Shown here: one piece after another, positions 3,179 to 22,416 of the stretch
Layout: each line of letters starts with the position of its first letter
Position numbering within the stretch: position 1 is the stretch's first letter
NCBI GenBank assembly: GCA_030538605.1
Contig: JAUNTQ010000007.1
Coordinates: 10,259-74,258 of the forward strand
DNA from: Pseudomonadota bacterium
GTDB lineage: Bacteria; Pseudomonadota; Gammaproteobacteria; Burkholderiales; Burkholderiaceae_C
Reading direction: 5' to 3'
DNA length: 64,000 nt
The notes under the pieces: generated by a model
Told to the model about the DNA's origin: nothing
What the model saw: the letters and a program-made list of their open reading frames with translations, nothing else
Databases searched by the model: none
Position numbers and translations under genes: made by a program

Positions 3179-3775
3179 ATGAGCAAACATCTCCTGTTTT
3201 CAGCCCGCACCGCGCTCGCCGTGCTGGTGGCGCTCACCACCTGCCTGGCAGCGCGTGCGGCCCAGGCCGAGTGGAACCTGCCCACGCTCATGCAGCAGCT
3301 GGCGCAGCACCCCAGCGGACGCGCCAAGTTCACCGAAACCAGAACGCTGGCCGTGCTGACCGAGCCGGTCGTGAGCACCGGCGAGCTGGTCTTCAGCCCG
3401 CCCGACCGGCTGGAAAAGCACACGCTCAAGCCTGCCTCTGAGTCGCTGGTCGTCTCGGGCAATGACCTGGTGGTCACGCAGGGCGGCAAGCAGCGCGCGC
3501 TGCGCCTGCCGCAATACCCGCAGGTGCTGGCCTTCGTGGAGGCGCTGCGCGGCACGCTGGTGGGCAACCAGGCGCTGCTCCAGGCGCATTACGCGCTGGC
3601 GCTTTCCGGCACCGAAAGCGCCTGGCAACTGGTGCTGACGCCGCTGGATGACCAGCTCAGACGCCAGGTGAGCCAGATCACCGTGCACGGCGCGCGCAAC
3701 CAGGTCTTGCGCGTGCAGACGCTGCAAGCCGATGGCGACAAGTCGCTCATCACCATCGAGCCCGCCGCCCGCTGA
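3179..3775 (+). CDS. LolA-like outer-membrane lipoprotein carrier family protein
   Basis: Signal peptide MSKHLLFSARTALAVLVALTTCLAARAA; LolA-like size and position, as in APE clusters. Confidence 0.6.
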   Translation: MSKHLLFSARTALAVLVALTTCLAARAAQAEWNLPTLMQQLAQHPSGRAKFTETRTLAVLTEPVVSTGELVFSPPDRLEKHTLKPASESLVVSGNDLVVTQGGKQRALRLPQYPQVLAFVEALRGTLVGNQALLQAHYALALSGTESAWQLVLTPLDDQLRRQVSQITVHGARNQVLRVQTLQADGDKSLITIEPAAR

Positions 3776-3777
3776 CC

Positions 3778-6144
3778 GTGCCCGCTTTTTCTTCTCGCAC
3801 CGCTGGGGTGCTGGCGCTTTGGCTGCTGCTGATCGGGCTGGGCGTGGCCATGGTTCAGGGCGCGCGCTATGTCACCGACATGTCGGCGTTCCTGCCGCAA
3901 AACCCCGACCGCCACCAGCGCCTGCTGGTCGACCAGATCAAGGACGGCGCGCTCTCGCGCCTGCTGCTCATCGGGCTGGAAGGCGGCAGCGCCGCCGAGC
4001 GCGCCGACACCTCGCGCGCGCTGGCCGAACGGCTGCGCGCCGACCCGGCCTTCAGCGCCGTCGTCAACGGCGACGAAGCCAGCCAGGCGCGCGACCACAC
4101 GCTGCTGATGCAGCAGCGCTACGCCCTCAGCCCGCGCGTGGACAGCGAGCGCTTCACCCCTGCCGGCCTGCACGCGGCCTTGCAAGACTCGGTGACGGCG
4201 TTGAGCGGCTCTGCCGGCATGCTGCTGCGGGGCGTTTTTGCGCGCGACCCGACGGGCGAGCTGCTCGCCCAGCTCGACCGCGTCAGCGCGGGGCACACGC
4301 CCGCCAGCCGCGAAGGCGTGTGGGCCACGCCAACCGGCGACATGGCGCTGATGATGGCCCTGAGCGCCGCGCCCGGCACCGACACCGATGCGCAAGAGCG
4401 GCTGCTGCACACGCTGGCAGAGGCGTTCACGCACGCCCGCGCGTCTGATGCGGTGGCGCTGCGCGTGTCGGGCGCGCCGGTGTTTTCCGTGGAGGCGCGC
4501 CGCACCATCCGCAACGAGGTCAAGCGGCTGTCGCTGCTGGGCGGCCTCACCGTGTTTGCGCTCATGCTGGTGTTCTACCGCTCGCTGCGCAACGTGGCCA
4601 TCGGGCTGGTGCCGGTGGCCTCGGGCATCGTGGCGGCCATCGCGGCGGTGGCGCTGGGCTTCGATGCCGTGCATGCCGTCACCATCGGCTTTGGCACCAC
4701 CTTGATGGGCGAGACCATCGACTACAGCATCTATTACCTGGTGCAAGCGGACGACAAAGGCCGCTCAGGCGACTGGCGGCGGCAATGCTGGCCCACCATC
4801 CGGCTGGGCATGCTGACCTCGGTGTGCGGCTTTGCCGCCCTCACCTTCTCCAGCTTTCCGGGGCTGGCGCAACTGGGGGTGTATTCGGTGGCCGGGCTGC
4901 TCACCGCCGCTGCCGTCACCCGCTACGTGCTGCCCGTGCTGCCCCGCGCGCCGGTGCCGCCGGGCAACATCCGCTGGGTGGGCCTGCGCATGGCAGCGCT
5001 GCACCGGCTCGCCCAGCGCCTGCGCTGGCCCGCGCTGGGCCTGGCCGTGGCCGCGCTGCTGCTGGTGGCGGGTCAGCGCCACGCCTTGTGGGCCGAGGGC
5101 CTGGCGGGGCTGAACCCCGCGCCGCTGTCCTTGCAGGCGCTGGATGCGCGCCTGCGGCACGAAGCGGGCGCACCCGACATGCGGCACCTGGTGGTGGTAT
5201 CGGCCCTCAGTGCAGATGAGGCGCTGGCCGCCGCCGAGCGTGCCGAGGTGCTGCTCGCGCCCTGGCTGACCAAGGGCGTCATCGCGCGCATCGACAGTCC
5301 GGCGCACTTTCTGCCCAGCGCCGCCACCCAGGCAGCACGCCGCGCCGCGCTGCCCGCGCCTGACGAGCTGCGCCAGCGCCTACGGCAGGCCACCTCGGGC
5401 CTGCCCGTGGCACCCGAGCGCCTGGAGCCCTTCATCGCCGACGTGGCCGAGGCCCGGCAGGCCCCGCCGCTGACGCCCGAAACACTGCGCGGCAGCAGCT
5501 TCGGCTTTGCCCTGCAAACCCTGCTGCTGCCCCGGGCCGGCGGCCATGCGGCCCTGCTGCCCGTGCATCTGGCGGGCGATGTCGATCTGGCCCGGCTGCA
5601 CAAGGAGATCGGCCAGGCGCTGGCCGCAAGCGATCTGCCAGACGCCTTGTTCGTTGACCTCGACACGCAGACCGCCGAGATGTTCGGCACGTATCTGAGC
5701 GAAGCGCTGGTCTTCACCGGGCTGGGGGCGCTGGCCATCGTGGGCGTGCTGGGCGTGGCGCTGCGCAGCCCCGGGCGGCTGGCGCGCGTGCTGCTGCCGC
5801 TGGCAGGCGCGGTGGTGCTGGTGATGGCCGCGCACCTGCTGGCGGGCACGCGGCTGACGCTCTTGCACCTGATCGGGCTGCTGCTGATCGTGGCCGTGGG
5901 CTCCAACTACGCCCTGTTTTTCGAGCAGAACTTCTCCCGCCCCGGCCCCGCCATGACGCCCGCGCAAACCACCGCGCTGGCCTCACTGGCGCTGGCCAAT
6001 CTGTCCACCATGATCGGCTTTGGCGTGCTGGGGCTGTCAGAGGTGCCGGTGCTGCACGCCATGGGCACCACCGTCGGCCCCGGCGCGCTGCTGGCGCTGC
6101 TGCTGGCCATGGCCTGGTCGCCGCGCGCACCGCTTCGAGGCTAA
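3778..6144 (+). CDS. MMPL/RND-superfamily exporter
   Basis: 788 aa with two TM bundles plus periplasmic domains; GTG start directly after the LolA-like stop. Confidence 0.8.
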   Translation: MPAFSSRTAGVLALWLLLIGLGVAMVQGARYVTDMSAFLPQNPDRHQRLLVDQIKDGALSRLLLIGLEGGSAAERADTSRALAERLRADPAFSAVVNGDEASQARDHTLLMQQRYALSPRVDSERFTPAGLHAALQDSVTALSGSAGMLLRGVFARDPTGELLAQLDRVSAGHTPASREGVWATPTGDMALMMALSAAPGTDTDAQERLLHTLAEAFTHARASDAVALRVSGAPVFSVEARRTIRNEVKRLSLLGGLTVFALMLVFYRSLRNVAIGLVPVASGIVAAIAAVALGFDAVHAVTIGFGTTLMGETIDYSIYYLVQADDKGRSGDWRRQCWPTIRLGMLTSVCGFAALTFSSFPGLAQLGVYSVAGLLTAAAVTRYVLPVLPRAPVPPGNIRWVGLRMAALHRLAQRLRWPALGLAVAALLLVAGQRHALWAEGLAGLNPAPLSLQALDARLRHEAGAPDMRHLVVVSALSADEALAAAERAEVLLAPWLTKGVIARIDSPAHFLPSAATQAARRAALPAPDELRQRLRQATSGLPVAPERLEPFIADVAEARQAPPLTPETLRGSSFGFALQTLLLPRAGGHAALLPVHLAGDVDLARLHKEIGQALAASDLPDALFVDLDTQTAEMFGTYLSEALVFTGLGALAIVGVLGVALRSPGRLARVLLPLAGAVVLVMAAHLLAGTRLTLLHLIGLLLIVAVGSNYALFFEQNFSRPGPAMTPAQTTALASLALANLSTMIGFGVLGLSEVPVLHAMGTTVGPGALLALLLAMAWSPRAPLRG

Positions 6145-6193
6145 GTCTCGCGCAAGGTCGCCCCCCTAAAATAGCCCGGTGTACGACTGAACA

Positions 6194-6227
6194 AAGGCCA
6201 CGCGGGGCTGCGATGGCCGTTTTTTTT
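6194..6227 (+). terminator. Possible weak intrinsic terminator/attenuator after the MMPL gene
   Basis: GGCCACGCGGGGCTGCGATGGCC stem followed by T8 immediately before the ATG of the next gene. Confidence 0.3.
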
Positions 6228-6228
6228 C

Positions 6229-7590
6229 ATGCAAGACAGTAGCCAGGGCGCGCCCACTTCCGACACCACCCGCGCCATGACATGCGATGTGCTGGTCATC
6301 GGCGGCGGGCCTGCGGGCAGCACCGCCGCCACCTTGCTGGCGCGCCAGGGGCACGATGTGCTGCTGCTCGACAAGGACGCCCACCCCCGTTTTCACATTG
6401 GCGAATCGCTGCTGCCGGCCAACCTGCCGCTGTTCGAGCGGCTGGGCGTGGCCGACGAGGTGCGCGCCATCGGCATGCCCAAGTTCGGTGCCGAGTTCAT
6501 GTCGCCCTGGCACGGCTTCAAGCAGACCTTCGAGTTTGCCGAGGCGTGGAACAAGCAGCTGCCCCATGCCTACCAGGTGCGCCGCTCCGCGTTCGACCAG
6601 ATCCTGCTGGCCAACGCCGCCAAGGCCGGCGCACGCGTGGTGCAACGCTGCAAGGTGGAGCACGTCGATCTGGACGCCTCGCCCGCGCACGCCCAGGCGC
6701 GCGCACGCGATACCGAAGGCCACACACTGGACGTGCGCGCGCGTTTCGTCATCGACGCCTCGGGGCGCGACACCTTTCTGGCCAGCCGCCTCAAGCTCAA
6801 ACACAAGAACCCACACCACAACAGCGTGGCCGTGTTCACCCATTTCGAGGGCGCGCGCCGCAACGAAGGCCGGGCCGAAGGCAACATCACCATCTTCTGG
6901 TTCGACCACGGCTGGTTCTGGTTCATCCCGCTGCAGGACGGCGCCACCAGCGTGGGCATGGTGACCTGGCCGCACTTCATGCGCACGCGCGGCGAGCGCG
7001 ATCTGAGCCGCTTTCTGATGGACGGCATTGCCCTGTGCCCGCCGCTGGCCGCGCAGCTGCAAGGCGCGCGCATCGTCCACCCCCCCGAGGCCACAGGCAA
7101 CTTCTCGTACCAGAGCGAGCGCACCCACGGGCGCAACTACGCGCTGCTGGGCGACGCCTATGCCTTCATCGACCCCGTGTTCTCCTCCGGCGTGATGCTG
7201 GCCATGCAGGGCGGCTTTGACGGCGCAGAGGCCGTGCACGCCTGGCTGGGCGCGGCATCGCCCGCGCAGCAGCAGGCCGCGCTGGCCCGGCTCGACCAGC
7301 GCCTGCGCCACGGCCCACGCGAGTTCTCGTGGTTCATCTACCGCATGACCAACCCGGCCATGCGCGACCTGTTCATGGGCCCGCGCAACACGCTGCGCAT
7401 GAAAGAAGCGCTGCTGTCGCTGCTGGCCGGCGACATCTACGGCCACACGCCCATCTGGCGTTCGCTGCGCGCGTTCAAGGCCGTGTACTACGCCAACACG
7501 CTGCTGCACCTGCCGCGCTCGGTGCGCGCGTGGCGCCAGCGCCAGCGCAACATGCGCACGCACGACGACGGCCTTGCGCCGCGCGCCTGA
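6229..7590 (+). CDS. FAD-dependent oxidoreductase, tryptophan-halogenase-like
   Basis: Rossmann motif VLVIGGGPAGSTAATLLARQGHDVLLLDKD; halogenase/geranylgeranyl-reductase-like length. Confidence 0.75.
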   Translation: MQDSSQGAPTSDTTRAMTCDVLVIGGGPAGSTAATLLARQGHDVLLLDKDAHPRFHIGESLLPANLPLFERLGVADEVRAIGMPKFGAEFMSPWHGFKQTFEFAEAWNKQLPHAYQVRRSAFDQILLANAAKAGARVVQRCKVEHVDLDASPAHAQARARDTEGHTLDVRARFVIDASGRDTFLASRLKLKHKNPHHNSVAVFTHFEGARRNEGRAEGNITIFWFDHGWFWFIPLQDGATSVGMVTWPHFMRTRGERDLSRFLMDGIALCPPLAAQLQGARIVHPPEATGNFSYQSERTHGRNYALLGDAYAFIDPVFSSGVMLAMQGGFDGAEAVHAWLGAASPAQQQAALARLDQRLRHGPREFSWFIYRMTNPAMRDLFMGPRNTLRMKEALLSLLAGDIYGHTPIWRSLRAFKAVYYANTLLHLPRSVRAWRQRQRNMRTHDDGLAPRA

Positions 7591-8399
7591 TGCGCCCCGC
7601 CACCGTCCGCATGGCCCCCGCCAACGTTCTGGCCGCCACCTGGCAGCGCGTGCGCGAAAGCGTGGCCATGGTGCTGGGCCTGGGCCTGCTGGCGCTGCTG
7701 TGCCTGGCGTGGACGCCATTCGCCCTGCTGCTGAAGCCACTGCTGCCCAGGACGCTCGGCGCGCGCATCGGGCGCGGGGCCATCCGCACCGTGTTTCGCA
7801 TCTACGTGGCGCTGCTGCGCCTGCTGTGCGGCTGCCGGTTTGATCTGGCCGCGCTTGACGCGCTGGCGCACCAGCCGGGGCCGATGGTGGTGGTGGCCAA
7901 CCACCCTTCGCTGCTCGACGCGGTGCTGCTCGTCTCGCGCCTGCCCAACGCCGTGTGCATCATGAAAGCCAGCCTCATGCGCAACCTGCTGCTGGGCGCA
8001 GGTTCGCGGCTGGCGCGCTACATCGTCAACGACGCGCCCCTGCCCATGATCCGCCGCGCCATCGCCGAGTTGCAAGGCGGCGACGCGCGGCTCGTCATCT
8101 TTCCCGAAGGCACGCGCACCGCCCAGCCGCCGGTAGACGTCTGCACCGCCACGGCGGGGCTGATCGCCGCGCGCGCCGGCGTACCGGTGCAAGTGGTGGC
8201 CATCGAGATGAGCAGCCCTTACCTGGGCAAGAGCTGGCCGCTGTTCAGGCCGCCGCGCCTGCCGCTCACGGTGCGCGTGCGCCACGTGACCGAGTGGCAG
8301 GTGGGCGGCGCGCAGGCCGCACACTTCGGCACCGACGTGCGCGCCCTGCTCACGCGCGAGCTGGCCCACAGCGCCGCCGCCCCGCAAAACCATGCCTGA
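7590..8399 (+). CDS. 1-acyl-sn-glycerol-3-phosphate acyltransferase (PlsC family)
   Basis: HX4D motif ANHPSLLD and FPEGTR motif; ATGA overlap with upstream gene. Confidence 0.7.
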   Translation: MRPATVRMAPANVLAATWQRVRESVAMVLGLGLLALLCLAWTPFALLLKPLLPRTLGARIGRGAIRTVFRIYVALLRLLCGCRFDLAALDALAHQPGPMVVVANHPSLLDAVLLVSRLPNAVCIMKASLMRNLLLGAGSRLARYIVNDAPLPMIRRAIAELQGGDARLVIFPEGTRTAQPPVDVCTATAGLIAARAGVPVQVVAIEMSSPYLGKSWPLFRPPRLPLTVRVRHVTEWQVGGAQAAHFGTDVRALLTRELAHSAAAPQNHA

Positions 8400-9156
8400 G
8401 CCCAGCCGCACCCACCTGGTGCTCATCCCCAGCTACAACCCCGGCGCCAAGCTCATCGACACGGTGCGCGCCGCATGCGCGCAGTGGGCGCCGGTGTGGG
8501 TGGTGGTCGACGGCAGCACCGACGGCAGCGCAGAGGTGTTGCGCACGCTGGCCGACGAATGCGAACACCTGCGCGTCATCGTCAAGCCCGTCAACCAGGG
8601 CAAGGGCGCAGCCGTGCTCACCGGCATCGAAGCCGCCGCGCGCGAGGGCTTCACGCACGCGCTGACGATGGACTCCGACGGCCAGCACCCGGCAGACCTC
8701 ATCCCCACCTTCATGCAGGCCTCTCAACAGCGGCCCGAGGCCATGGTGCTGGGCGTGCCCCAGTTCGGCCCCGAAGCGCCGCGCATCCGCGTGCTGGGCC
8801 GCAAGATCAGCAACGGTTGGGCCAACCTGGAAACGCTGGGCGTGGGCATTGGCGACTCGCTCTACGGCTTTCGCGTCTACCCCATCGCGCCGCTCGCGCG
8901 CGTCATGCGCGGCCAGCGCTTCATGCGCCGCTTCGACTTCGACCCCGAAGCCGCCGTGCGCCTGGCCTGGGCAGGCGTGCCCCCCCTCAACCTGCCCGCC
9001 CCCGTGCGCTACTTCACGGCAGAAGAAGGCGGCGTGTCGCACTTCAAATACCTGCGCGACAACACCCTGCTGACGTGGATGCACACGCGCCTGTTCGCGG
9101 GCTTTTTGCTGCGGCTGCCGCTGCTGGCGTGGCGGCGTGTTTCAATAAAAAGATAG
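8392..9156 (+). CDS. Family 2 glycosyltransferase
   Basis: LVLIPSYNPGAKL...VVVDGSTDGSAEVL GT2 signature; its last 48 codons are duplicated at 27557-27691. Confidence 0.75.
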   Translation: MPEPSRTHLVLIPSYNPGAKLIDTVRAACAQWAPVWVVVDGSTDGSAEVLRTLADECEHLRVIVKPVNQGKGAAVLTGIEAAAREGFTHALTMDSDGQHPADLIPTFMQASQQRPEAMVLGVPQFGPEAPRIRVLGRKISNGWANLETLGVGIGDSLYGFRVYPIAPLARVMRGQRFMRRFDFDPEAAVRLAWAGVPPLNLPAPVRYFTAEEGGVSHFKYLRDNTLLTWMHTRLFAGFLLRLPLLAWRRVSIKR

Positions 9157-9248
9157 CTGCTTGCGCATGTATTTAATATGTTTAAGATTATTTAATATAT
9201 TAAACCTAATAAATACATTCGCAAGCAGCTACTCTTTTCATTTTTCTG
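9153..9248. repeat. Palindromic AT-loop element copy 1 (probable bidirectional terminator)
   Basis: 21-bp stem AGCTGCTTGCGCATGTATTTA / TAAATACATTCGCAAGCAGCT around a 34-nt AT-rich loop, with A-run upstream and T-run downstream; sits at the GT2 stop codon. Confidence 0.7.
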
Positions 9249-9375
9249 GGTGAGCGGCCATGCTCAGCCCGCCATGCAGTGGCAAGCTTGTCACGGTGTT
9301 TGCCTGCGGCTTTGCGGCCTACCATGAGGCCACTCATCCATGCCCAAGGCATTTCCTCCCCACAGCCATAGAGCC

Positions 9376-10416
9376 ATGCAAACTCTCAGCTACCACCTCA
9401 GCTTCAACACCCCCGCCTTCATGGGCAATGCGCAGCAATCTGCGCAGTGGCGCACACCCCCCATCAAGGCCCTGCTGCGCCAATGGTGGCGGGTGGCGGT
9501 GGCCTGGCAAATCGACTACGACGTAGAAAAGCTGCGCGAGCGCGAGAACGCCTTGTTTGGCGTGGCGGCTGATGGTGACAAGTCGAGCAAGAGCCTTGTG
9601 CGGCTGCGCCTGAGCCATTGGAGTAAAGGCAAGCTCGAAGACTGGCCACGACATGGCACGGTCTTCCACCCGGAAGTCAAGAATAGCCATATCGGCAGCG
9701 ACCTCTACCTCGGCTTTGGGCCGCTGGGGTACACGGGTGCCACCACCATCAAGCACAAGCCCGCCATTCACGCTGGCGACAGTGCCACCCTCCGCCTGTC
9801 CATGCCTGAAGAACATGCCCAGGACATCGCCACCGCCCTGTGGCTGATGCACCAGTACGCCGCCTTGGGCGGGCGCAGCCGCAATGGCTGGGGATCGCTT
9901 TGCCTGACACCTGCCGACGAGCACACACCCCCATTGCAAGGGCGCCCGATAAAGGAATGGACACGCGATTGGAACAAGGCGCTGACGCTGGACTGGCCGC
10001 ACGCCATCGGCCATGATGCGCACGGCCTGCTCGTGTGGAAAACCCGCCCCTTTGCCGACTGGCCACAACTGATACAGGAACTGGCGCGCCTGAAGATCGC
10101 ACTGCGCACGCAACAGTTCAAGTTCACCACCGGCAAGAACGCCCCCAGGCCGGAAGATCGCCACTGGCTCAGCTACCCCGTCACCAACCATTCAGTGGGA
10201 AGCTGGGGCGGCAGCCTCCGCCTGCCCAACAGCCTGCGCTTCAAGGTGCGCGCAGCCCCGGAAAACCCCGAGCAAGTCATCGGCGTGATCTTCCACATGC
10301 CCTGCCTGCCGCCCGACGCCTTCAAGCCCGACACCACAGCAATCACCCGCGTCTGGCAGCAGGTACACCAGCTCCTCGACAAACCCGAGCAAGCGCTCAA
10401 CCGCATTGACGCCTGA
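9376..10416 (+). CDS. cmr1: Cmr1 (type III-B RAMP)
   Basis: RAMP N-terminus MQTLSYHLSFNTPAFMGNA and G-rich loop GGRSRNGWGS; an alternative start at 9340 is possible. Confidence 0.7.
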   Translation: MQTLSYHLSFNTPAFMGNAQQSAQWRTPPIKALLRQWWRVAVAWQIDYDVEKLRERENALFGVAADGDKSSKSLVRLRLSHWSKGKLEDWPRHGTVFHPEVKNSHIGSDLYLGFGPLGYTGATTIKHKPAIHAGDSATLRLSMPEEHAQDIATALWLMHQYAALGGRSRNGWGSLCLTPADEHTPPLQGRPIKEWTRDWNKALTLDWPHAIGHDAHGLLVWKTRPFADWPQLIQELARLKIALRTQQFKFTTGKNAPRPEDRHWLSYPVTNHSVGSWGGSLRLPNSLRFKVRAAPENPEQVIGVIFHMPCLPPDAFKPDTTAITRVWQQVHQLLDKPEQALNRIDA

Positions 10417-10423
10417 GGCCCGC

Positions 10424-13400
10424 ATGACCACCCACCACGACACCCTCTGGCAAACCAAGCTGCACGCCCGCCTGCACGATTCGGCTGAAACAGCACTCTC
10501 GCTGCTGCACGACCCGGCCGGGCACACCGGCCACCATGCGCGCGTAGCGGCCCGCATGGCCTGCCGCGAAGGGCATGCGGCAGACGCCCCCATCGACAAC
10601 GACAACCCCGACGTGCTGCATGCCATCGCCTTCCCCAAAGGCATTCAGCCCGCCACCTGCCAAACCGTGCAGCGTGCCGACCGGTGGGCGGTGGGGGCCG
10701 ACCGGCCACAGTGGCCGCTGGGTGAGGTGCAGACCACTGCAAGCAACAGCGAGAAAAAGACCCTGGGCGTGGCCCCGTGGGCACAAGTGCGCTGGGTCAG
10801 CCAACCCGTGCTGATTCACCCCCTGACCGGTGCGCCATACGACCTGCAGGCGCATGGTGGCCTTTCGCAAGCCGACTTTCAGCACATCAAGGCACGCGCG
10901 CTTTCGCACCTGTCCAGCCTGCGGCTACCCGAGCAAGGCCAAATCGACCTCAAACGCACGCTGCTCGCCCTGTGGCGATTCGGCCCCGAGCTGCGCCAGA
11001 AAGAAGGCAGCGACAAGCTCGGCGAATGCTGGAAGCTGCTGCCCGCCGACACCCGCGTGCCTGACCACGCCATCTGGGACCACCTCGACCTCACCAGCGC
11101 CTTTGCAGGTGCCTTCGCCGCCGACCCCAAGGGCGAAGCCGCCTTGCTCACGCTGTCCATCGGCCCGGTGCAGCCCTTCATCGCTGCCGCCCGCAAGATG
11201 GAAGATCTGTGGGCCGGCTCGCACCTGCTGGCGCGCCTGTCGTGGGAAGCCATGCGCGTCGTTTGCGAGCAACTCGGCCCCGACGCCATCCTGTTCCCGC
11301 GCCTGCGCGGCGTGCCGCAGGTCGATCTGTGGCTGCGCGACCAATGCGGCCTGCCCCGCAAGTGGTTCGACGATTGCGACTGGATGCATGGCAGCACCGA
11401 CAGCAACCCGCTCTTCGCCGCCGCGTTGCCCAACCGCTTCGTCGCCACCGTGCCAGCCACCGGGGCCACGGCACTGGCCGAGAAAGTGCAAGAACAGGTG
11501 CGCCAATGGCTGCAAGACAAGGGCCAGCAGCTTGTCCGCTGCCTGCTGTCGGCTGCGGGCATCGAAGCCAACCCCGGCTTGCCATGCTTCGAGCAGATGC
11601 AAACACAACTGCAAGGCTTTCCTGAAGTGCATTGGGCCGTGGTGCCTTTCAGCCTCATCGATATGGCCGATGCGCAGACACACGCGGGCCTCGACACCAC
11701 GCAGCTTTCCGACGCCATGCGCCCCTTCTTCAACGGCGCGCCGGGCCAAAGCAGCGGCTTTCTCGCCAGCGATGCCTGGAAACTGCTGCAACGCGAGTTG
11801 AAAGCACAGCACGACAGCGGCCAAGCCTTCACGTTTTACAGCCCCAACCCAGGCGTGCTCTACCCCGCCGTCCACGAACTGGCCGAGCGCGCGCTGGCCG
11901 CCGCCAAGGCACTGCGCCCCTTTGGCCAGGCCACGCAAGAAGGCTGGCGCTGCACCCTCAGCGGCGAAGCCGAATGGCTGACCACCGACCGCACGCAACT
12001 CACTCTCTCCAGCGGCCAGCGCACCGACACGCTTTGGACGCGCCTTGCAAGCGCCAAGCCTGCCTGGGCCAGGCACGGCGAGCACCTGGGCGCACTGCCC
12101 GCCCTCAAGCGCCTGTGGCCCACGCTGTTTGCCGAGGAAGTGGCGAACGCAACTGGCACGCCAAGCATCGAGCGATTCGTCGTCTCGACCCACACGATGG
12201 CGCTGGCACACCAGATGAAGCAATGGTTGCAAAGCGACACCCCGTCTGCATCAGGACTGACAGAACTTCGAGATCGCTACAAAAGCAGGATTGATCCGGT
12301 AGCCCTGCCGCGCAAGCTCGTGCTCGACCACCTGGCGCTGAGCGGTCACGCGCTCGCCAGCGCTGCGGCAATGCCCGCCTTGCTCGATCTGGCCGACGAA
12401 GAACTGACCGAGGCCGAGGGCAACACCATCCGCCGTGTCGTGGGCCAAACACTTGCCAGCAGCGACAAGCATCAGACAAGCGACCGGCTGGAAACCTACT
12501 ACGCCCTGCTGCTCATGGACGGCGACCGCATGGGCGCATGGCTCTCAGGCGACAAGGCCATCGCCTACCGCGACAGCTTTCACCCGCAGGTGCAAAAAGG
12601 CTTTGACGAACGAGCCAAACGCAACGCCTCTCTGCACGCCTACGGCCAGCAGGCACGCGCCCTCACCCCGAGCCGACACCTGGCCATCTCCGGCGCGCTC
12701 AACGACTTTTCGCTCACCGTGGTGCGCCATGTGGTCGAGGTGGAGCACCTGGGCCGCCTGATCTACGCCGGTGGCGACGACGTATTCGCCATGTTGCCCG
12801 TGGCCGATCTGCTGCCTGCCATGCAGCGCCTGCGCCACGCCTACAGCGGCCACGACCCGGCACACGAAGGTGGGCGCGACCCGAGCGGCCTCACGCTGCA
12901 AGGCGGTTTTGCCCGCTTGCACGGCAAGCTCATGCGCATGATGGGCACCCAGGCCACGGCCTCTTGCGGCGGCGTCATCGCCCACCACCAGGCACCCCTG
13001 TCTGCCGTGCGCCGCGAACTGGCGGCTGCTGAACAGCGCGCCAAGAACGAAGGTGGCCGCGACGCGTTTTCCATCACCGTTGTCAAGCGCTCGGGCGGCA
13101 CGCTGCGCCTGACCGCCAAGTGGGACAAGGCCCGGGCGCTGCTCGACGATCTGCGGCGCTTTCTGGCGCGTGGCGACGTGTCGCGCCGCGCTGCCTACCA
13201 CACCCTGCAATGGCTCGACGCCAACGAGCTGCCCCAGCCCTTGAATCAGGACATGCTGCAAAGCCTGCTCAGCTACCAGCTTGCACGGCAGGCAGAAGGC
13301 AAAGCCCGGGCAGAGTCTGCCGGGCTGGCCCAGCGGCTGGTCGATTTGTGCATGAAGCAGCCCGGTCTCAAGCAAATCGAATGGCTGCGCAACTTCATCA

Positions 13401-13480
13401 GCGTGGCCGAATTTCTGGCGCGCGAAGTGCGCAGCACGCCCGAGGACAGCGCACACAGCACGCCCGAGGCCAGCCCGTGA
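10424..13480 (+). CDS. cas10: Cas10/Cmr2 large subunit with intact cyclase GGDD motif
   Basis: 1018 aa; motif LIYAGGDDVFAMLPV; N-terminal HD-like dipeptides (LHARLHD). Confidence 0.85.
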   Translation: MTTHHDTLWQTKLHARLHDSAETALSLLHDPAGHTGHHARVAARMACREGHAADAPIDNDNPDVLHAIAFPKGIQPATCQTVQRADRWAVGADRPQWPLGEVQTTASNSEKKTLGVAPWAQVRWVSQPVLIHPLTGAPYDLQAHGGLSQADFQHIKARALSHLSSLRLPEQGQIDLKRTLLALWRFGPELRQKEGSDKLGECWKLLPADTRVPDHAIWDHLDLTSAFAGAFAADPKGEAALLTLSIGPVQPFIAAARKMEDLWAGSHLLARLSWEAMRVVCEQLGPDAILFPRLRGVPQVDLWLRDQCGLPRKWFDDCDWMHGSTDSNPLFAAALPNRFVATVPATGATALAEKVQEQVRQWLQDKGQQLVRCLLSAAGIEANPGLPCFEQMQTQLQGFPEVHWAVVPFSLIDMADAQTHAGLDTTQLSDAMRPFFNGAPGQSSGFLASDAWKLLQRELKAQHDSGQAFTFYSPNPGVLYPAVHELAERALAAAKALRPFGQATQEGWRCTLSGEAEWLTTDRTQLTLSSGQRTDTLWTRLASAKPAWARHGEHLGALPALKRLWPTLFAEEVANATGTPSIERFVVSTHTMALAHQMKQWLQSDTPSASGLTELRDRYKSRIDPVALPRKLVLDHLALSGHALASAAAMPALLDLADEELTEAEGNTIRRVVGQTLASSDKHQTSDRLETYYALLLMDGDRMGAWLSGDKAIAYRDSFHPQVQKGFDERAKRNASLHAYGQQARALTPSRHLAISGALNDFSLTVVRHVVEVEHLGRLIYAGGDDVFAMLPVADLLPAMQRLRHAYSGHDPAHEGGRDPSGLTLQGGFARLHGKLMRMMGTQATASCGGVIAHHQAPLSAVRRELAAAEQRAKNEGGRDAFSITVVKRSGGTLRLTAKWDKARALLDDLRRFLARGDVSRRAAYHTLQWLDANELPQPLNQDMLQSLLSYQLARQAEGKARAESAGLAQRLVDLCMKQPGLKQIEWLRNFISVAEFLAREVRSTPEDSAHSTPEASP

Positions 13481-14973
13481 CCGAAGCCGCCCCCGCCCTG
13501 CTGACACAGCCCGAGGGCAAGACGCTGGAGTTCAAGCGCAACCTGAGTTCCCCGCGCAATGTGCTCAAGACCTTGGTGGCCTTTGCCAACTCGGCCGGTG
13601 GCAAGCTGGTCATCGGGGTGGATGACGCGCGCCGCATCGTCGGCGTGGCTGACCCGCTGGGCGAAGAAGAGCGTCTGTGCAACCTGATCGCCGACGGCAT
13701 CGCCCCGCGCCTGATCCCCAACGTGGAGCTGCTCAGCGTAGGCGATGCCACGCTGCTGGTGGCCGAAGTCTTTCCCAGCAGCGCCCGGCCACACCACCTG
13801 AAGGCGCTGGGGCCTGAACAGGGCGTATACCTGCGCCTTGGCTCCAGCAACCGCCAGGCTGGGCCCGACTGGATTGACGAAACACGCCGCGCGGCGGCCG
13901 GCCTGGTGTTCGACGAGCAGCCCATGCCCGAGCTGAGCGTGGACGATCTGGATCTGGACGCTGTGGCCCGCCTGCTCGGCCCAGACCGTGCGCGCGACAC
14001 TGCTGGCCTGCAAACCCTCAAGCTGCTGCGCATGGAGCAAGGGCGGCAGGTGCCTACGCAAGGTGCCGTGCTGCTCTTCGGTCGAAATCGCGCCCAACAC
14101 TTTCCAGACGCCTGGGTACAGTGCGGGCGCTTTCGCGGAAGCGAAAAGGTGGACATCTTCGACCAGCAGGACATCCACACATCCTTGCCCGACGCCGTGG
14201 CAGCCATCGAGCTGTTTCTGAAAAAGCACGCCCACAAAAGCGCGCGCTTCGGTGCCATGCAGCGTGAAGACGTGTGGAGCATTCCACTGACCTTGCTGCG
14301 CGAGGGCATCGTCAACGCCCTCGTGCATGCCGACTATGCGCAGCGCGGCACCCCCATTCGCGTTGCGTTTTTCGACGACCGCATCGACATCGAAAGCCCC
14401 GGCTTTCTGCTGCCCGGCATGACGGTGGCCGACATGCAAGGCGGCGTCTCGCGCATTCGCAACCCGGTCATCGCCCGCGTGTTCCGAGAGCTGCGCCTGA
14501 GCGAGCAATGGGGCAGCGGCATGAAGCGCATTTTTTCCGAGGCCGCCGCGTGGGGGCTGCCCCCGCCCAACGTGGCGGAATTCGCCACCGGCGTTCGCCT
14601 GCGCGTTTTTCTGGCCCCGGCCCACACCGAAGCCGCGCAAGCCCCGGCACCCACGCCCCCCCCCGACACTCCGCCGTCAAACACGCCGCAGCCAGAGTCA
14701 CAGCTAGAGTCACAGCTAGAGTCACGTCTGGCCGCCAAGGTGTTCCTGCTCCTGCACGCGAACGAATCGGGCAAAGCCGCCTTGGCGCGCGGCTTGGGGC
14801 ACCGCAGCGTATCGGGCGAGCTGCACAAGCAAGTGCAGCGTTTGCTCGCGCACGGCCTGATTGCCATGACCTTGCCAGACAAACCCCAAAGCCGCCTGCA
14901 ACGCTACCGCCTCACACAGCAAGGTCAGCGCCTGCTGGCCGCACTGCGCACCAAGGAAAACCCCGCCCCATGA
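13477..14973 (+). CDS. AlbA_2 (Schlafen-like) + HATPase_c_4 domain protein (COG2865-like) embedded in the cmr operon
   Basis: N-terminal KTLEFKRNL...VAFANSAGGKLVIGVDD (AlbA_2-like), C-terminal ...NALVHADY...FDDRIDIESPG (HATPase_c_4-like); GTG overlaps the cas10 stop and the stop overlaps the cmr3 ATG. Confidence 0.65.
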   Translation: MTEAAPALLTQPEGKTLEFKRNLSSPRNVLKTLVAFANSAGGKLVIGVDDARRIVGVADPLGEEERLCNLIADGIAPRLIPNVELLSVGDATLLVAEVFPSSARPHHLKALGPEQGVYLRLGSSNRQAGPDWIDETRRAAAGLVFDEQPMPELSVDDLDLDAVARLLGPDRARDTAGLQTLKLLRMEQGRQVPTQGAVLLFGRNRAQHFPDAWVQCGRFRGSEKVDIFDQQDIHTSLPDAVAAIELFLKKHAHKSARFGAMQREDVWSIPLTLLREGIVNALVHADYAQRGTPIRVAFFDDRIDIESPGFLLPGMTVADMQGGVSRIRNPVIARVFRELRLSEQWGSGMKRIFSEAAAWGLPPPNVAEFATGVRLRVFLAPAHTEAAQAPAPTPPPDTPPSNTPQPESQLESQLESRLAAKVFLLLHANESGKAALARGLGHRSVSGELHKQVQRLLAHGLIAMTLPDKPQSRLQRYRLTQQGQRLLAALRTKENPAP

Positions 14974-16094
14974 CCACCCTCACCTCCCTTTTCATTGAAC
15001 CGCTTGACGTGCTCTTCTTGCGCGGCAACCAGCTTTTTGGCGAACCGGGCAGCTACGGCGAGGCGCTCATGCCGCCCTGGCCCTCGGTGGCCGCAGGTGC
15101 CCTTCGCTCGCGCATCCTGGCCGACGACGGCGCAGACCTGCACGCCTTCGCGCAAGGCCGTGTCCCACACCCCGAACTGGGCACACCCGAGCAGCCGGGC
15201 AGCTTCTTGCTGCACGGCTTTCAACTGGCACGCCGCGCAGGCCAAAAAATGGAGCTGCTCATGCCTGTGCCCGCCGATCTGTTCGTCACCGAAAACGACG
15301 ACGGCACCCCTGCCGCCACCGCCCTGCACCCCACAGCGCCGCACAAGGCCATCGCCACATCCAGCCCGCTGCCACTGGTGCCGCTGCTGGCCCAGGCCGC
15401 GCGCGCCAAGCCCGCCAGCGGCTGGTGGCTGCGCGAAAGCGGCTGGCGCAAGCACCTGCACGCCCAGCCCATCGCCAGCAACGACCTGGTCAAGACCAGC
15501 GAGCTGTGGGCTTATGACGAGCGCATCGGCATCGGGCTGGACGAAACCCAGCGCAGCGCATCCGACGGCAAGCTGTTCAGCTCCCGCGCCGTCTGTCTGC
15601 ACCCAGGCGTCGGCTTTGCCGTGGCCGCCAGCGGTGCCCGCCTGCCCGCCAGCGGTGCGCTTCGCCTCGGCGGTGATGGCCGCGCCGCTCATCTTCACCA
15701 TGCCGCCATCCGCTGGCCCGAACCCGACCATGCCGCCATCGCACAAGCCCGGCGCTGCCGCATCGTGCTCACCAGCCCCGGCATCTTTTCCCACGGCTGG
15801 CAACTGCCCGGCATGGCAGCAGACGGCCAGCTCAGCTTGCCCGGCATGCGCGCCCGCGTGGTGGCCGCCGCCGTCAGCCGCGCCGAGACCATCTCCGGCT
15901 GGAACCTTGCCACCTGGCAACCCAAGCCCGCGCAAAAAGCCGCAGGCAGCGGCAGCGTCTACTGGCTGGACGACCTCGACACCACGCCCGATGCCCTTCA
16001 CAAGCTTGCCGCGCACGGCCTGTGGAGCCAGCCCTGCGAAGATGCGCCGCGCCGCGCAGAAGGCTTCAACCGCTTCAGCTTTGCCGTCTATTGA
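14970..16094 (+). CDS. cmr3: Cmr3
   Basis: Classic N-terminus LFIEPLDVLFLRGNQLFGEPGSYGEALMPPWPSVAAGALRSRIL. Confidence 0.75.
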   Translation: MTTLTSLFIEPLDVLFLRGNQLFGEPGSYGEALMPPWPSVAAGALRSRILADDGADLHAFAQGRVPHPELGTPEQPGSFLLHGFQLARRAGQKMELLMPVPADLFVTENDDGTPAATALHPTAPHKAIATSSPLPLVPLLAQAARAKPASGWWLRESGWRKHLHAQPIASNDLVKTSELWAYDERIGIGLDETQRSASDGKLFSSRAVCLHPGVGFAVAASGARLPASGALRLGGDGRAAHLHHAAIRWPEPDHAAIAQARRCRIVLTSPGIFSHGWQLPGMAADGQLSLPGMRARVVAAAVSRAETISGWNLATWQPKPAQKAAGSGSVYWLDDLDTTPDALHKLAAHGLWSQPCEDAPRRAEGFNRFSFAVY

Positions 16095-17393
<1,299 letters not shown>

Positions 17394-17396
17394 GCC

Positions 17397-18623
17397 ATGC
17401 CCATCTCCGCCACCCCCGCCTATCTAGGCCAGAACTTCAGCACCGCCTCACCCGGGCTGCGCTTTGGCATGTACCTGCCTTTGTGGGACACCGACCTCTG
17501 CTCCATCGTCACGGACAGCAAAACCAAGGCCTTGCAGCAAGCCTGCAAACTCACCGCCAACGACAAGGCCGTCATAAACGCGCTGGTTGATCGCCAAAGC
17601 CACCTCGCCAGCGCCTGCCCGCACCTGCTCACACTCGATGCCACCGCCGTCGCCCCCTTCACCACCGGCCTGGGCAACGAGCACCCGCTTGAAAACGGCT
17701 TTGCCTTCCTCAACCCCTACGGCCTGCCCTACCTGCCCGGCAGCGGCGTCAAGGGCGTGCTGCGTCAGGCAGCGCGCGAGTTGGCCAAAGGCGATTGGGG
17801 CGACACCCACGGCTGGACGGACGAGAAAATTTACCGGCTCCAACGCACGGGCGAGAAAGACATCGCGCTCACCCCACTCGACGTGCTATTCGGCCTTGAA
17901 AACACCGACGGCAGCACCGAACACGTGCGCGGCGCACTCAGCTTCTGGGACGCCCTGCCAAAAATCCACGGCGAAGCGCTGGCCGTGGACATCATGACCC
18001 CGCACCAAAGCCACTATCACCAGCAGAAAAAAGATCGAGAGAGCGGCTCCAGCACCACCCCGCACGACAGCGGCAAGCCCAGCCCCATCAGCTTTCTCAC
18101 GCTCCCGCCGGGCACTGAATTTGCCTTTCACGTGCAGTGCGATCGGGCGCACTTGAAGCACCTCGCGCCCGAACTGGCCGACAACTGCCATTGGCAAAAG
18201 CTCGTCATGGCCGCCTTCATGCATGCCTTTGAATGGCTTGGCTTCGGTGCCAAAACCGCCGTGGGCTACGGCGCGATGAAGATCGATGAGCGCGCAACCA
18301 ACCGCCGCGCACAAGCCCGCCAGGAAGCTGACAAGACTGCACGCATGGCCAGCCTCTCACCCGCACAGCGGCAAATCCAAGAGTTCGAGGACGAGCTGCG
18401 CGCCAAGCACGAGCAATACCCGGCCTACAAGGAAGGCCCCAACGCCGCCTTCCACAACAAAGCCCGCCAGCTCGCCAAAGCCGCACACGAAGCCACCGAC
18501 TGGAGCGCCGACGAAAAGCGCGCCGCCGCCCTAGCCATTGAAACCTGGCTGCCCAAGCTGGTGCGCGTGGAAATGAAGGAAGAGCGCAAGAAACTCGGCC
18601 TCGCCGCGCTCAAAGGGCTATGA
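17397..18623 (+). CDS. cmr6: Cmr6 (RAMP) with a roughly 120-aa charged C-terminal extension
   Basis: GLPYLPGSGVKGVLRQAARE and FGLENTDGS RAMP motifs; extra coiled-coil-like C-terminus. Confidence 0.75.
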   Translation: MPISATPAYLGQNFSTASPGLRFGMYLPLWDTDLCSIVTDSKTKALQQACKLTANDKAVINALVDRQSHLASACPHLLTLDATAVAPFTTGLGNEHPLENGFAFLNPYGLPYLPGSGVKGVLRQAARELAKGDWGDTHGWTDEKIYRLQRTGEKDIALTPLDVLFGLENTDGSTEHVRGALSFWDALPKIHGEALAVDIMTPHQSHYHQQKKDRESGSSTTPHDSGKPSPISFLTLPPGTEFAFHVQCDRAHLKHLAPELADNCHWQKLVMAAFMHAFEWLGFGAKTAVGYGAMKIDERATNRRAQARQEADKTARMASLSPAQRQIQEFEDELRAKHEQYPAYKEGPNAAFHNKARQLAKAAHEATDWSADEKRAAALAIETWLPKLVRVEMKEERKKLGLAALKGL

Positions 18624-19555
18624 CCGAGCACCTCGGCACCCTGCCCATCGCCCGCCTGCGCCTCACCGTGCGTGCAGACGCGCCGCTGCACCTGCCACCC
18701 TACGCTGGCTCCATGCTGCGCGGTGCCTTCGGCCACGCCCTGCTGGCGCTGGCCCCTCTGCCGCACCACGGCGGCCAGCCCTGTGCGCTGCACGCCAGTT
18801 GCCCCTACTGCCAGGTATTCGCCAGCCCGCCACTGCCCGCCCACAGCCTGCAAAAGTTCAGCCAGATGCCCGCGCCCTACGTCATCGAGCCGCCCGAAGG
18901 CGGCGCGCAGCGCTTGTCCGCAGGCCAAGCCTTCGACTTCGGCCTGGTACTCATCGGCAAGGCACTCACCCACATCGGTGCCATCGAACGCGCCTGGCAA
19001 CGCGCCCTGCGCATCGGCCTGGGCCACGAACACGCACCATGCACCCTTGTGAAAATTCATGATGAAAATGGCGAAAAACCCTTTGAAATCATGCGCGAGA
19101 AGCTATCAAAATCAATAATCGATCTACCCCCCGCCCCCACGCTCACCCACCGCGCCACGCTGCACTTTCACACCCCCCTGCGCCTGCAAATACAAGGCAA
19201 GCCCGCCCGTGCCCACCAACTCACCGCGCGCCACCTGCTGATCACCCTCGCACGCCGCTGGCAACTGCTGCAAGACGTGCATCTCGGTGCCGCCGCACCG
19301 CAGCAAGACTTTGCCGCCCTCAGCACCCAGGCCAGCGCCATCACGCTGCAAGCGCATGGCCTGCGCTGGTACGACTGGGGCCGCTACTCACAGCGCCAGC
19401 AGCGCGAAATGCAACTCGGCGGCCTGCTCGGCAGCCTGCACCTGCACGGCGAACTGTCACCCTTCGCCCATCTGCTGCACCTGGGCCAATGGCTGCACCT
19501 TGGCAAGAACACCAGCTTTGGCCTGGGCGGCTATCGGCTGCAACTCGAAGGGTGA
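18620..19555 (+). CDS. cas6: Cas6 pre-crRNA endoribonuclease
   Basis: C-terminal glycine-rich loop GKNTSFGLGGY; ATGA coupling to cmr6. Confidence 0.75.
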   Translation: MTEHLGTLPIARLRLTVRADAPLHLPPYAGSMLRGAFGHALLALAPLPHHGGQPCALHASCPYCQVFASPPLPAHSLQKFSQMPAPYVIEPPEGGAQRLSAGQAFDFGLVLIGKALTHIGAIERAWQRALRIGLGHEHAPCTLVKIHDENGEKPFEIMREKLSKSIIDLPPAPTLTHRATLHFHTPLRLQIQGKPARAHQLTARHLLITLARRWQLLQDVHLGAAAPQQDFAALSTQASAITLQAHGLRWYDWGRYSQRQQREMQLGGLLGSLHLHGELSPFAHLLHLGQWLHLGKNTSFGLGGYRLQLEG

Positions 19556-19703: not shown

Positions 19704-21175
<1,472 letters not shown>

Positions 21176-21195: not shown

Positions 21196-22416
21196 ATGCC
21201 AACCACCACGCACACATTGCTCGCCACCACAGGCGCATCGCCTCAAGTGGTCACTGAAACACTCTATGCCATTCACCACGAAAACCTGCAATGGCCTGAT
21301 GACATTTACTTGATTACCACCAGCTTCGGCAAGAAAAGAGCTATTGAAGGCCTGCTCCATCAACACCACTTGCAGCGCCTTTGCACACAATTGAATCGCC
21401 CCACGCCCGCCTTTGACGGAAGCCATGTGCTCGTCACACCCGGTGCGGACGGCAGCGCCGTAGAAGACGCGCGCTCACTGCAAGACCACGAAGCCCTGGC
21501 CAACTTCATCATGACCGAAGTGCGAAACCTCACCGCACAGCCTCGCGCCAGCCTGCACGCCTCTCTGGCTGGCGGCAGAAAAACCATGACGTTCTACCTG
21601 GGTTACGCCATGAGCCTTTTTGGGCAAGCGCAAGACACCTTGAGCCACGTGCTGGTGAGCGACGGCTACGAAACACTGCCAGACTTCTGGTTCCCCACAG
21701 CCGAAAGCAGCATCGTGAAGAACAGCCGAGGCGAAGAAATGGACGCAAACCTTGCCAAAATCACGCTTGCACCCATTCCCTTCATTCGCCACCGCTTCAA
21801 CCTGCCGAAAGTGCTGCTGCAAGATAACGAAGTCGTTCAGTTTTCCGATCTGGTTCAACTCATCAACCTGGGCGAAAACCTTGACTCATTGCGAATAGTT
21901 GTTGACCCTCCCCAAAAGACCATCCGCGTCGAGAGCACGGAAAGCCAACTCTCCATTCCTTTCCAGCCCGGCCCTCTGGAAATGGCTTTTTACAGCATGA
22001 TGGCTCGTGGTACACGAGAAGGAGAACATGATCTCACACGCCCTGACAAGCCAGACCGTGGTTTGTCTCATGAATTGATGAGAGAGCTTATGCCCATTTG
22101 CGCACAACCCTACGATGACGAAAATCTCGCAAACAACATCGCCAAGCTCAAAGACTGGAACATAACAAACCCCTCATTCAAGGAAGACACCTTTGATGTA
22201 CTCGCAACAGGCATCACTCGCAGTTGGTTTGACTCAAGGAAAAACACACTTGTCGAAATGTTCTCCAAGAAGCTGCCCGGCAGCCTTGTTCGCAGGGTTG
22301 CGCCTTCCATCATCTGGTCAGGCAGCCAGCGCATCACGCCCGGTGACATGACGAGGGTACCCAAAGGTGGTGGCTACGGCATCGACATCAAGCCAGAAAA
22401 CATCATCATCAACTGA
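21196..22416 (+). CDS. Second CARF-domain protein (Cas_NE0113-like) with an unknown, low-GC C-terminal domain
   Basis: N-terminus LLATTGASPQVVTETLYAIH typical of the NE0113/Csx1-like CARF family; the last ~220 codons drop to about 48% GC. Confidence 0.6.
   Translation: MPTTTHTLLATTGASPQVVTETLYAIHHENLQWPDDIYLITTSFGKKRAIEGLLHQHHLQRLCTQLNRPTPAFDGSHVLVTPGADGSAVEDARSLQDHEALANFIMTEVRNLTAQPRASLHASLAGGRKTMTFYLGYAMSLFGQAQDTLSHVLVSDGYETLPDFWFPTAESSIVKNSRGEEMDANLAKITLAPIPFIRHRFNLPKVLLQDNEVVQFSDLVQLINLGENLDSLRIVVDPPQKTIRVESTESQLSIPFQPGPLEMAFYSMMARGTREGEHDLTRPDKPDRGLSHELMRELMPICAQPYDDENLANNIAKLKDWNITNPSFKEDTFDVLATGITRSWFDSRKNTLVEMFSKKLPGSLVRRVAPSIIWSGSQRITPGDMTRVPKGGGYGIDIKPENIIIN

Follow-up and report, generated by a model that had tools for sequence, protein, structure and literature searches.

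A Schlafen–GHKL–winged-helix gene nested between cas10 and cmr3 of a type III-B CRISPR operon is probably a co-expressed passenger

The 64,000-nucleotide stretch analysed here (the window: positions 10,259 to 74,258 of contig JAUNTQ010000007.1 from a Pseudomonadota bacterium of the Burkholderiaceae_C, GenBank assembly GCA_030538605.1) holds a complete type III-B CRISPR system, and between the cas10 and cmr3 genes of its Cmr effector operon lies an additional open reading frame (ORF) encoding a Schlafen-domain protein. The ORF list and its translation place this gene on the forward strand at 13477–14973, with a GTG start codon at 13477, a TGA stop codon at 14971–14973 and a product of 498 amino acids; the peptide LEFKRNL...AFANSAGGKLVIGVDD is found in the translation, and the protein is 100% identical to a deposited protein (P0001) from a metagenome-assembled genome (MAG). 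A preliminary description of this DNA had reported a gene of some 500 amino acids at this position that overlaps both of its neighbours, which holds to the nucleotide: the start codon forms a GTGA overlap (13477–13480) with the cas10 stop codon (TGA, 13478–13480), and the stop codon forms an ATGA overlap (14970–14973) with the start codon of cmr3 (ATG, 14970–14972), all on the forward strand. Both ends of the gene are 4-nt overlaps of the kind that mediates translational coupling, the intergenic space is nil, and a GAGG Shine-Dalgarno-like motif is located 7 nt upstream of the GTG. A promoter scan of the forward strand gave no promoter-like site near the Schlafen gene; the sole such site near the operon lies at 9173–9201, upstream of cmr1. 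Because both ends overlap, intergenic space is absent and no promoter-like site lies nearby, co-expression of the Schlafen gene with the genes of the interference complex, as proposed in the preliminary description, appears plausible from the sequence.

The full length of the protein can be accounted for by a Schlafen domain, a linker region, a GHKL ATPase domain, a repeat linker and a C-terminal winged helix-turn-helix (wHTH) domain, as seen in an AlphaFold2 (AF2) model. Pfam searches recovered both domains named in the preliminary description: SLFN_AlbA_2 (PF04326; Pfam cut-off 25.3 bits) at residues 13–128 (13513–13860; E 1.7e-23) and HATPase_c_4 (PF13749) at residues 291–374 (E 1.5e-23), the latter within a Bergerat-fold ATPase domain spanning approximately residues 271–378 (14287–14610). 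The C-terminal-most domain, which was missing from that description, is the wHTH at about residues 406–490 (14692–14946): Pfam Fic-like_C matches residues 457–480 (E 2.2e-8), and Foldseek matches this region to MarR/PadR wHTH proteins with a probability of 1.0, the model reaching a predicted local distance difference test score (pLDDT) of 82–88 there. The Schlafen domain carries an Ex4ExK motif (E13-GKTL-E18-F-K20, nt 13513–13536) and D50, and in an alignment of 86 orthologues from all genomic contexts E13, E18, K20 and D50 are invariant in 84–85 sequences. The Bergerat motifs (E276xxxN280...D286, D300/D301...G309, G346xG348) are conserved as well: E276, N280, D286, D300, G309, G346 and G348 are invariant in 86/86 orthologues and D301 in 83/86. 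Between ATPase and wHTH, a 12-nt tandem repeat of 3.1 copies (14689–14725, found by TRF) encodes a (Q/E)SxLES linker repeat with pLDDT below 50 in the model; the number of these ESRLES repeats differs strongly among orthologues, with many more copies in P0119 (alignment A1, columns ~440–475).

All sequence features of the 'Schlatpase-HTH' or pSlfn-HisKinase-HTH class are thus present, namely the SLFN_AlbA_2 domain, the Ex4(E/D)xK motif, a GHKL domain with Bergerat motifs on its C-terminal side and a short (w)HTH. Ex4(E/D)xK is the Schlafen nuclease motif, and pSlfn-HisKinase-HTH proteins make up 19.2% of 5,930 prokaryotic Schlafens (bioRxiv 10.1101/2025.07.24.666596); the Schlafen–GHKL pair has been described as the 'Schlatpase' supra-domain, found in 58.6% of 103,533 Schlafen proteins of prokaryotes, and Schlatpase proteins are mostly short, with either no further domain or a short C-terminal HTH (bioRxiv 10.64898/2026.05.29.728809). 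The best matches among solved structures are DIP2311 of Corynebacterium diphtheriae (PDB 3LMM) and a RecG-related N-terminal domain (PDB 2KYY). The former is the top Foldseek match of the model (E 5e-17), shows the same three-domain AlbA_2–GHKL–wHTH layout and is also found by a phmmer sequence search of the PDB (E 1e-7, residues 265–370); 2KYY is found by both searches (phmmer E 4e-8), and SLFN12 and the CA domains of histidine kinases appear as weaker Foldseek matches. Identity to 3LMM and 2KYY is only ~19%, and both are structural-genomics entries without an assigned function. More is known of the SLFN-pAgo protein RzAgo, in which ATP drives tetramerisation and thereby reconstitutes a nuclease that cleaves tRNA (bioRxiv 10.64898/2026.05.29.728809). 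The window protein shares both Pfam domains with RzAgo, arranged in the same order, it keeps Ex4ExK, and its ExxxN Mg/ATP motif E276/N280 corresponds to E314/N318 of RzAgo; the PADLOC pAgo model also matches its residues 28–340 (E 1.9e-9). In contrast to RzAgo, it has no Argonaute core and hence no guide-dependent sensor, and tetramerisation and tRNA cleavage would extend to short forms by analogy.

Under its older annotation (COG2865) the protein would be a transcriptional regulator, its wHTH regulating the cmr operon or other defence genes and its AlbA_2 and ATPase domains serving as sensors of ligands or nucleic acids. The well-predicted, MarR/PadR-like wHTH agrees with this, as do the database names ('predicted HTH transcriptional regulator', 'helix-turn-helix domain-containing protein') and the frequent presence of regulators in defence operons, an example being the WYL/BrxR gene upstream of a bacteriophage exclusion (BREX) system on an Azotobacter salinestris plasmid (L158, see below). 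A pure regulator would, however, not need the near-invariant Ex4ExK, D50 and ATPase motifs; the gene sits in the middle of its operon and not at the head, and BREX loci carrying it already have a WYL regulator. Moreover, related Schlatpase modules are tRNases by experiment (bioRxiv 10.64898/2026.05.29.728809), and RNase toxins occupy the same junction in related Cmr operons. We therefore regard a regulatory role as improbable.

Relatives of the Schlafen protein were collected by a one-genome-per-species scan, which returned 463 sequences; the best 80 genomic loci, all full-length matches of 53–76% identity, were analysed further, their Cmr context being tested by tblastn with the Cas proteins of the window. 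The order cas10–Schlafen–cmr3 was found in 4 of these 80 loci: an Acidovorax MAG (L001), Comamonas nitrativorans (L002), a Sterolibacterium MAG (L006) and Thauera butanivorans (L047). A metagenome scan with Cmr3 added seven further Schlafen-bearing loci (L081–84, L086–88), and three protein hits, traced to their loci, contributed L155 (Melaminivora suipulveris, complete genome CP027667.1, 1,710,291–1,727,775), L156 and L157, so that at least 15 type III-B loci including the window, hence at least 14 besides it, have a full or near-full copy at the cas10–cmr3 junction. These loci form one betaproteobacterial Cmr lineage. Every on-contig Schlafen junction in the other Cmr loci is a 4-nt ATGA overlap, the GTG of the window being the sole non-ATG start. 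In pairwise NG86 comparisons of nine loci, the ratio of non-synonymous to synonymous substitution rates (dN/dS) of the Schlafen gene is 0.11–0.42, against 0.16–0.49 for cmr3, and dS is similar for the same pairs; low dN/dS together with a cmr3-like dS indicates that purifying selection acted on the Schlafen gene while it diverged together with the operon. The ORF is a genuine and intact gene, conserved in its Cmr lineage, and a recent unrelated insertion with its own promoter, a scenario that the preliminary description named as refuting it, is ruled out by the lack of intergenic space and of a promoter-like site, the occurrence in at least 15 loci and the cmr3-like dS.

Conservation at this junction does not extend to related Cmr operons in general. 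In all of some 60 Cmr loci with a Cmr3 no more than 57% identical to that of the window, cas10 directly abuts cmr3 with no insert, and even within the close lineage (Cmr3 at least 65% identical) L085 lacks the gene, the cas10 stop and the cmr3 ATG there forming an ATGA overlap of their own (L085:5359–5362). In other members of the lineage the gene has been reduced to a stub: L089 (5082–5795) has Schlafen residues 8–69 fused in frame to 317–495, the 84-codon stub of L148 (1510–1794) has residues 8–57 fused in frame to 460–495, and similar C-terminal remnants lie at contig ends in L146 and L091. An integral subunit of the Cmr complex should be present throughout related Cmr operons; with about 60 related loci without the gene, and the gene lost or stubbed within the close lineage, this candidate role was rejected. 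The L089 and L148 stubs keep the reading frame and both overlaps, the cmr3-proximal ATGA being shared by every Cmr-embedded locus and by the deletion stubs. What is selected in these stubs is hence the translation relay to cmr3 rather than the protein, which suggests that coupling of translation into cmr3 stays under selection even when the inserted gene has decayed.

These stubs raise the question of whether the window copy is itself a decaying passenger without current function, its ORF kept only in order to relay coupling from cas10 to cmr3. Decay may also have occurred elsewhere in the family: orthologues of Castellaniella hirudinis (L017:8001–9446) and of a Spirochaetia MAG (L046:3246–4706, beside pglX) are interrupted by internal stops, at codon 208 and codon 51 of the aligned region, respectively, and may be pseudogenes or sequencing errors. 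The copy in the window, however, is full length with every catalytic residue intact, dN/dS over the whole gene is as low as that of cmr3 in at least nine loci, and a relay ORF needs only ~80 codons, as L148 demonstrates. A functionless relay is in our view the least credible explanation for the window gene, and very improbable indeed.

In order to describe the family beyond Cmr, the neighbouring genes of the 80 genomic loci were clustered and the clusters annotated. Of these best orthologues, 76 lie outside Cmr loci, and at least 29 of the 80 loci carry BREX-1 genes around the Schlafen gene, which is found either between brxC and pglX (L024, L026, L035, L051, L053, L065, L072) or between pglX and pglZ (L014, L021, L027, L041, L042, L074, L076, L077). 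On plasmid NZ_CP045303.1 of Azotobacter salinestris (L158), the RefSeq annotation gives the order WYL–brxA–brxB–brxC–Schlafen–pglX, with an orthologue 64% identical to the window protein and a 4-nt overlap onto pglX. The same BREX-1 operon holds a second nested pair, an 'ATP-binding protein' and a hypothetical protein, between pglX and pglZ (L158:14131–16031). The other 47 loci are mixed, with type I restriction-modification (R-M) genes, MADS genes, AriA-like ATPases, integrases and housekeeping neighbours. A plasmid collection gave one close match, which is BREX-nested, and a phage collection gave distant relatives only; judged by these searches, there is no sign that the Schlafen gene is itself phage- or plasmid-borne. 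BREX-nested Schlafens have been read, together with HEPN and PIN RNases, as backup suicidal effectors (PMC12839542), and the window gene belongs to the same orthologous family: the BREX copies are 53–66% identical over the full length, share the three domains and the invariant catalytic residues, and show the same tight or overlapping nesting in a multi-gene defence operon. In contrast to these, the window copy has a type III-B cmr operon as its host, where it occupies the cas10–cmr3 junction and overlaps each neighbour by 4 nt, and no BREX gene is found among the Pfam-annotated genes at ~1–27 kb of the window.

Nearest to the Cmr copies in sequence are stand-alone genes from Thauera, Pseudothauera, Burkholderiaceae and Acidovorax (L003, L004, L005, L007, L009, L013), which have upstream intergenic regions of their own and are 70–74% identical. 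Neighbour-joining (NJ) trees with 100 bootstraps were built from 76 sequences and then from 86 after the addition of L006, L047 and L155–157; Cmr copies and stand-alone sisters form a clade with moderate bootstrap values of 68–83. Mean identity is 74% within the Cmr copies, 72% between these and the stand-alone sisters and 60% to the rest. We also searched for Cmr-specific residues as a possible mark of an interface and found none in the folded domains, the sole such positions, 494 and 498, lying in the tail that overlaps the cmr3 start. Using tblastn with E values up to 1, no Cmr or Cas remnants were detected beside the stand-alone sisters, with the exception of L011 (7779–11010), from a Burkholderiaceae MAG. 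In this locus an intact Schlafen gene is preceded by the N-terminus of cmr1 joined to a short non-cmr1 tail, which by visual inspection looks like the end of cas10; further downstream come ORF fragments that match a different, III-A-type Cas10, and recQ lies upstream on the opposite strand. From its sequence, the Schlafen gene of L011 appears to have outlived its CRISPR module.

The Schlafen gene is not the only RNase module lodged in such operons. In L094 (5251–6014) and L099 (5367–6010), whose Cmr3 proteins are 47–48% identical to that of the window, a pair of an NTP_transf_2 nucleotidyltransferase and a HepT-like HEPN RNase (an MNT-HEPN toxin–antitoxin system) is found exactly at the cas10–cmr3 junction, the landing site of the Schlafen gene. 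At the cmr3–cmr4 junction, an antitoxin-like ORF of ~80 amino acids and a PIN protein of ~135 amino acids (VapBC-like) occur in L108 (6699–7348), L119 (7039–7682) and L126 (7172–7820); by sequence or gap size, the same pair is likely present there in L104, L122, L127 (5531–6179), L128 and L130. These modules resemble the Schlafen gene in occupying the same or an adjacent junction and in being RNase-type growth-arrest effectors, and differ from it as two-gene pairs with a dedicated antitoxin where the Schlafen is a single polypeptide. Three Schlafen-bearing loci hold further toxin–antitoxin pairs (PIN with antitoxin, ParE with PhdYeFM) in the gap between cas6 and csx16 (L155:14281–14974, L156:14104–14816, L157:16254–16918), and L157 additionally encodes a 730-residue adenosine-deaminase protein and a Card1-type CARF nuclease; the ancillary region thus varies while the position of the Schlafen gene stays fixed. 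Since Schlafen, HEPN and PIN modules, which are reported to be nested in BREX, are also found at Cmr junctions, a general lodging of toxins and effectors fits these findings better than a Cmr-specific partnership.

This bears on the question of whether the Schlafen protein is functionally wired to the type III-B system. Three versions of such a link can be envisaged: a product of Cas10 bound in the GHKL ATP pocket activates the protein; the wHTH senses nucleic-acid structures made by Cmr or by the Cas10 HD domain; or the protein is a guard that fires when an anti-CRISPR inhibits the Cmr complex. Consistent with a link are the translational coupling to cas10 and cmr3 in every carrying locus and the divergence with cmr3 under purifying selection. 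In addition, other Schlafen fusions are true type III effectors: Cash, a Slfn-Csx15 fusion, is switched on by cyclic tetra-adenylate (cA4), and the same work speculates that Schlafens with ATPase and DNA-binding domains might detect structures arising from DNA cleavage (PMC13462974). The label 'backup suicidal effectors' for the RNases nested in BREX (PMC12839542) is compatible with such a link as well. Cash and the window protein have in common a Schlafen nuclease domain in a type III locus and an expected output of tRNA cleavage and growth arrest. Cash, however, contains the Csx15 sensor for cA4 and neither GHKL nor wHTH, and it is an ancillary gene that is not embedded between core effector-complex genes, whereas in the window protein searches of Pfam, NCBIfam and PADLOC gave no match to CARF, SAVED or Csx15. 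An effector that itself senses cyclic oligoadenylate (cOA) was rejected on these grounds. Linkage of the family to type III loci, as would be expected of an ancillary effector signalled by Cas10, is likewise not seen, with only 4 of the 80 orthologues in Cmr loci.

Further points against wiring to Cmr are the close stand-alone and BREX-nested orthologues, the fact that the Cmr copies have no clade-specific residues within their folded domains, the loss or truncation of the gene within the same Cmr lineage with coupling into cmr3 retained, the intact copy beside a collapsed Cmr module in L011 and the presence of Csx1 in the locus already. We consider a functional coupling of the Schlatpase-wHTH protein to type III-B, be it as effector or as guard, to be unlikely. 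A more specific form, that the nested protein is a CARF-independent arm of type III-B held inactive or activated by the Cmr complex by virtue of its co-translation with Cas10 and Cmr3, with the BREX orthologues guarding BREX in the same manner, is more doubtful still; under it, the protein could cleave tRNA upon target engagement by Cmr, the wHTH sensing Cas10 HD products or R-loop-like structures, or upon disabling of Cmr by an anti-CRISPR. The suggestion of the preliminary description that the gene is an accessory effector or sensor thus survives in part: a role as defence effector is plausible given the near-invariant Ex4ExK and GHKL motifs, whereas its co-operation with the cOA arms or the Cmr complex is not supported in view of the missing sensor domains, the distribution of orthologues, the scar-free sisters, the losses, the Cmr-specific residues confined to the tail and the Csx1 already encoded.

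Gene, domains, motifs, coupling, conservation, distribution and pattern of loss can be read directly from the loci, and the reading that we favour on their basis, with reasonable though far from complete confidence, is that the gene encodes an autonomous, ATP-gated Schlafen RNase of the Schlatpase-wHTH class that was captured where cas10 meets cmr3 and has been passed down with the operon as an additional layer of defence. Autonomy is indicated because most orthologues lie outside Cmr loci, the stand-alone sisters are free of scars and the folded domains have no Cmr-specific residues; that Cmr can dispense with the protein is indicated by the ~60 loci without the gene, its absence from L085 and the stubs of L089 and L148. 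The Schlafen gene is therefore probably no part of the CRISPR machinery but a passenger that is co-expressed with it. By this account, an ancestor of one type III-B lineage of the Burkholderiales/Rhodocyclales would have gained the gene at the coupled cas10–cmr3 junction, after which the gene would have been inherited along with its operon, the cmr promoter driving its transcription and coupling at either end its translation. From analogy with characterised relatives we infer nuclease activity, ATP gating, a role in abortive infection and independence from Cmr: the protein is presumably self-inhibited until ATP and a trigger, perhaps sensed via the nucleic-acid-binding wHTH, cause oligomerisation, with the binding of ATP by its GHKL domain acting as the switch, and in the oligomer the Schlafen nuclease would become active, cut tRNA or other RNA and thereby bring about growth arrest or abortive infection. 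Such a protein would most likely act independently of Cmr and cOA signalling, as a second, 'backup' defence sharing its regulation and transfer with the CRISPR module; the BREX-1-nested orthologues and the HepT-MNT and PIN modules of related Cmr operons would behave likewise.

Several observations weigh against this interpretation. A single fixed junction and perfect coupling, kept over a dS of ~0.5–1.1, would be compatible with a Cmr-linked role, too. For strict monophyly of the Cmr copies the NJ bootstrap value is 70 with 76 sequences and 12 with 86, and given this weak support the tree does not fix the direction of transfer between stand-alone and Cmr copies. The L011 locus lies on a MAG contig that could be chimeric. 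The quality of the AF2 model is moderate overall (pLDDT 68, predicted template modelling score 0.49). Finally, tRNase activity and a defence role are extrapolated from SLFN-pAgo, Cash and Ig-fused pSlfn proteins, the papers cited here reporting no experiment on the exact subfamily, the short Schlatpase-wHTH.

The remainder of the locus is that of a complete type III-B system, with all genes on the forward strand. The operon begins with cmr1 (9340–10416, Pfam RAMPs), followed by cas10/cmr2 (10406–13480, Pfam Cmr2_N and Cas10-Cmr2_palm2), for which a motif search places GGDD at residue 789. The cas10 ORF as called starts with a TTG at 10406, overlapping the end of cmr1, and an in-frame ATG seven codons further on (~10424, MTTHHD...) may be the true start; HD dipeptides near its N-terminus lie at residues 11, 24 and 35. 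Downstream of the Schlafen gene, Pfam identified cmr3 (14970–16094, Cas_Cmr3, E 5e-64), cmr4 (16122–17015), cmr5 (17019–17393), cmr6 (17397–18623) and cas6 (18620–19555). These are followed by csx16 (19704–20012), the CARF-HEPN gene csx1 (20009–21175; PADLOC E 3e-152), which encodes a canonical cOA effector, and a CARF5/NE0113 protein gene (21196–22416), as annotated with Pfam and PADLOC, then by cas1 (23422–24408, Pfam Cas_Cas1, E 2e-74) and a CRISPR array of ~28 repeat-spacer units of ~69 nt (24832–26798, TRF). Directly upstream of cmr1, at 257–9156, lies a lipid or secondary-metabolite-type cluster that is apparently unrelated to the CRISPR locus; its genes encode an AMP-binding enzyme, a lipid A-type acyltransferase, a LolA-like protein, an MMPL transporter, a tryptophan-halogenase-like flavoenzyme, an acyltransferase and a GT2 glycosyltransferase.

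Both the protein family and its nesting in defence operons have been published: Schlafens with ATPase and DNA-binding domains are tied to BREX, R-M and type I CRISPR systems, and Csx15 and NACHT fusions to type III systems (PMC13462974). What is new is the host, namely a type III-B effector operon in which the gene is wedged between two core subunits and coupled to both. The main texts of the pSlfn, Schlatpase, BREX and Cash papers do not mention the Schlatpase-wHTH class inside a cmr operon, and the catalogues of type III accessory genes (Shah 2018/2019, PMC6546367; Hoikkala 2024, PMC11229360) make no mention of AlbA, Schlafen, HATPase or RecG. Our findings extend the pattern of a defence gene inside a defence operon to Cmr, with the same RNase superfamilies as in BREX (Schlafen, HEPN and PIN), and the stubs that keep frame and overlaps are a clear example from nature of selection acting on the translational coupling from cas10 to cmr3 itself. 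Three cultured carriers, Melaminivora suipulveris, Thauera butanivorans NBRC 103042 and Comamonas nitrativorans CCUG 45781, offer tractable hosts in which to tell autonomous action of nested Schlatpases from a guard function for the system around them. An autonomous protein, to which the evidence points, would add incrementally to what is known; the more interesting outcome would be a functional link to Cmr, and should the guard reading hold true, the family would be a general 'guard of multi-protein defence complexes'.

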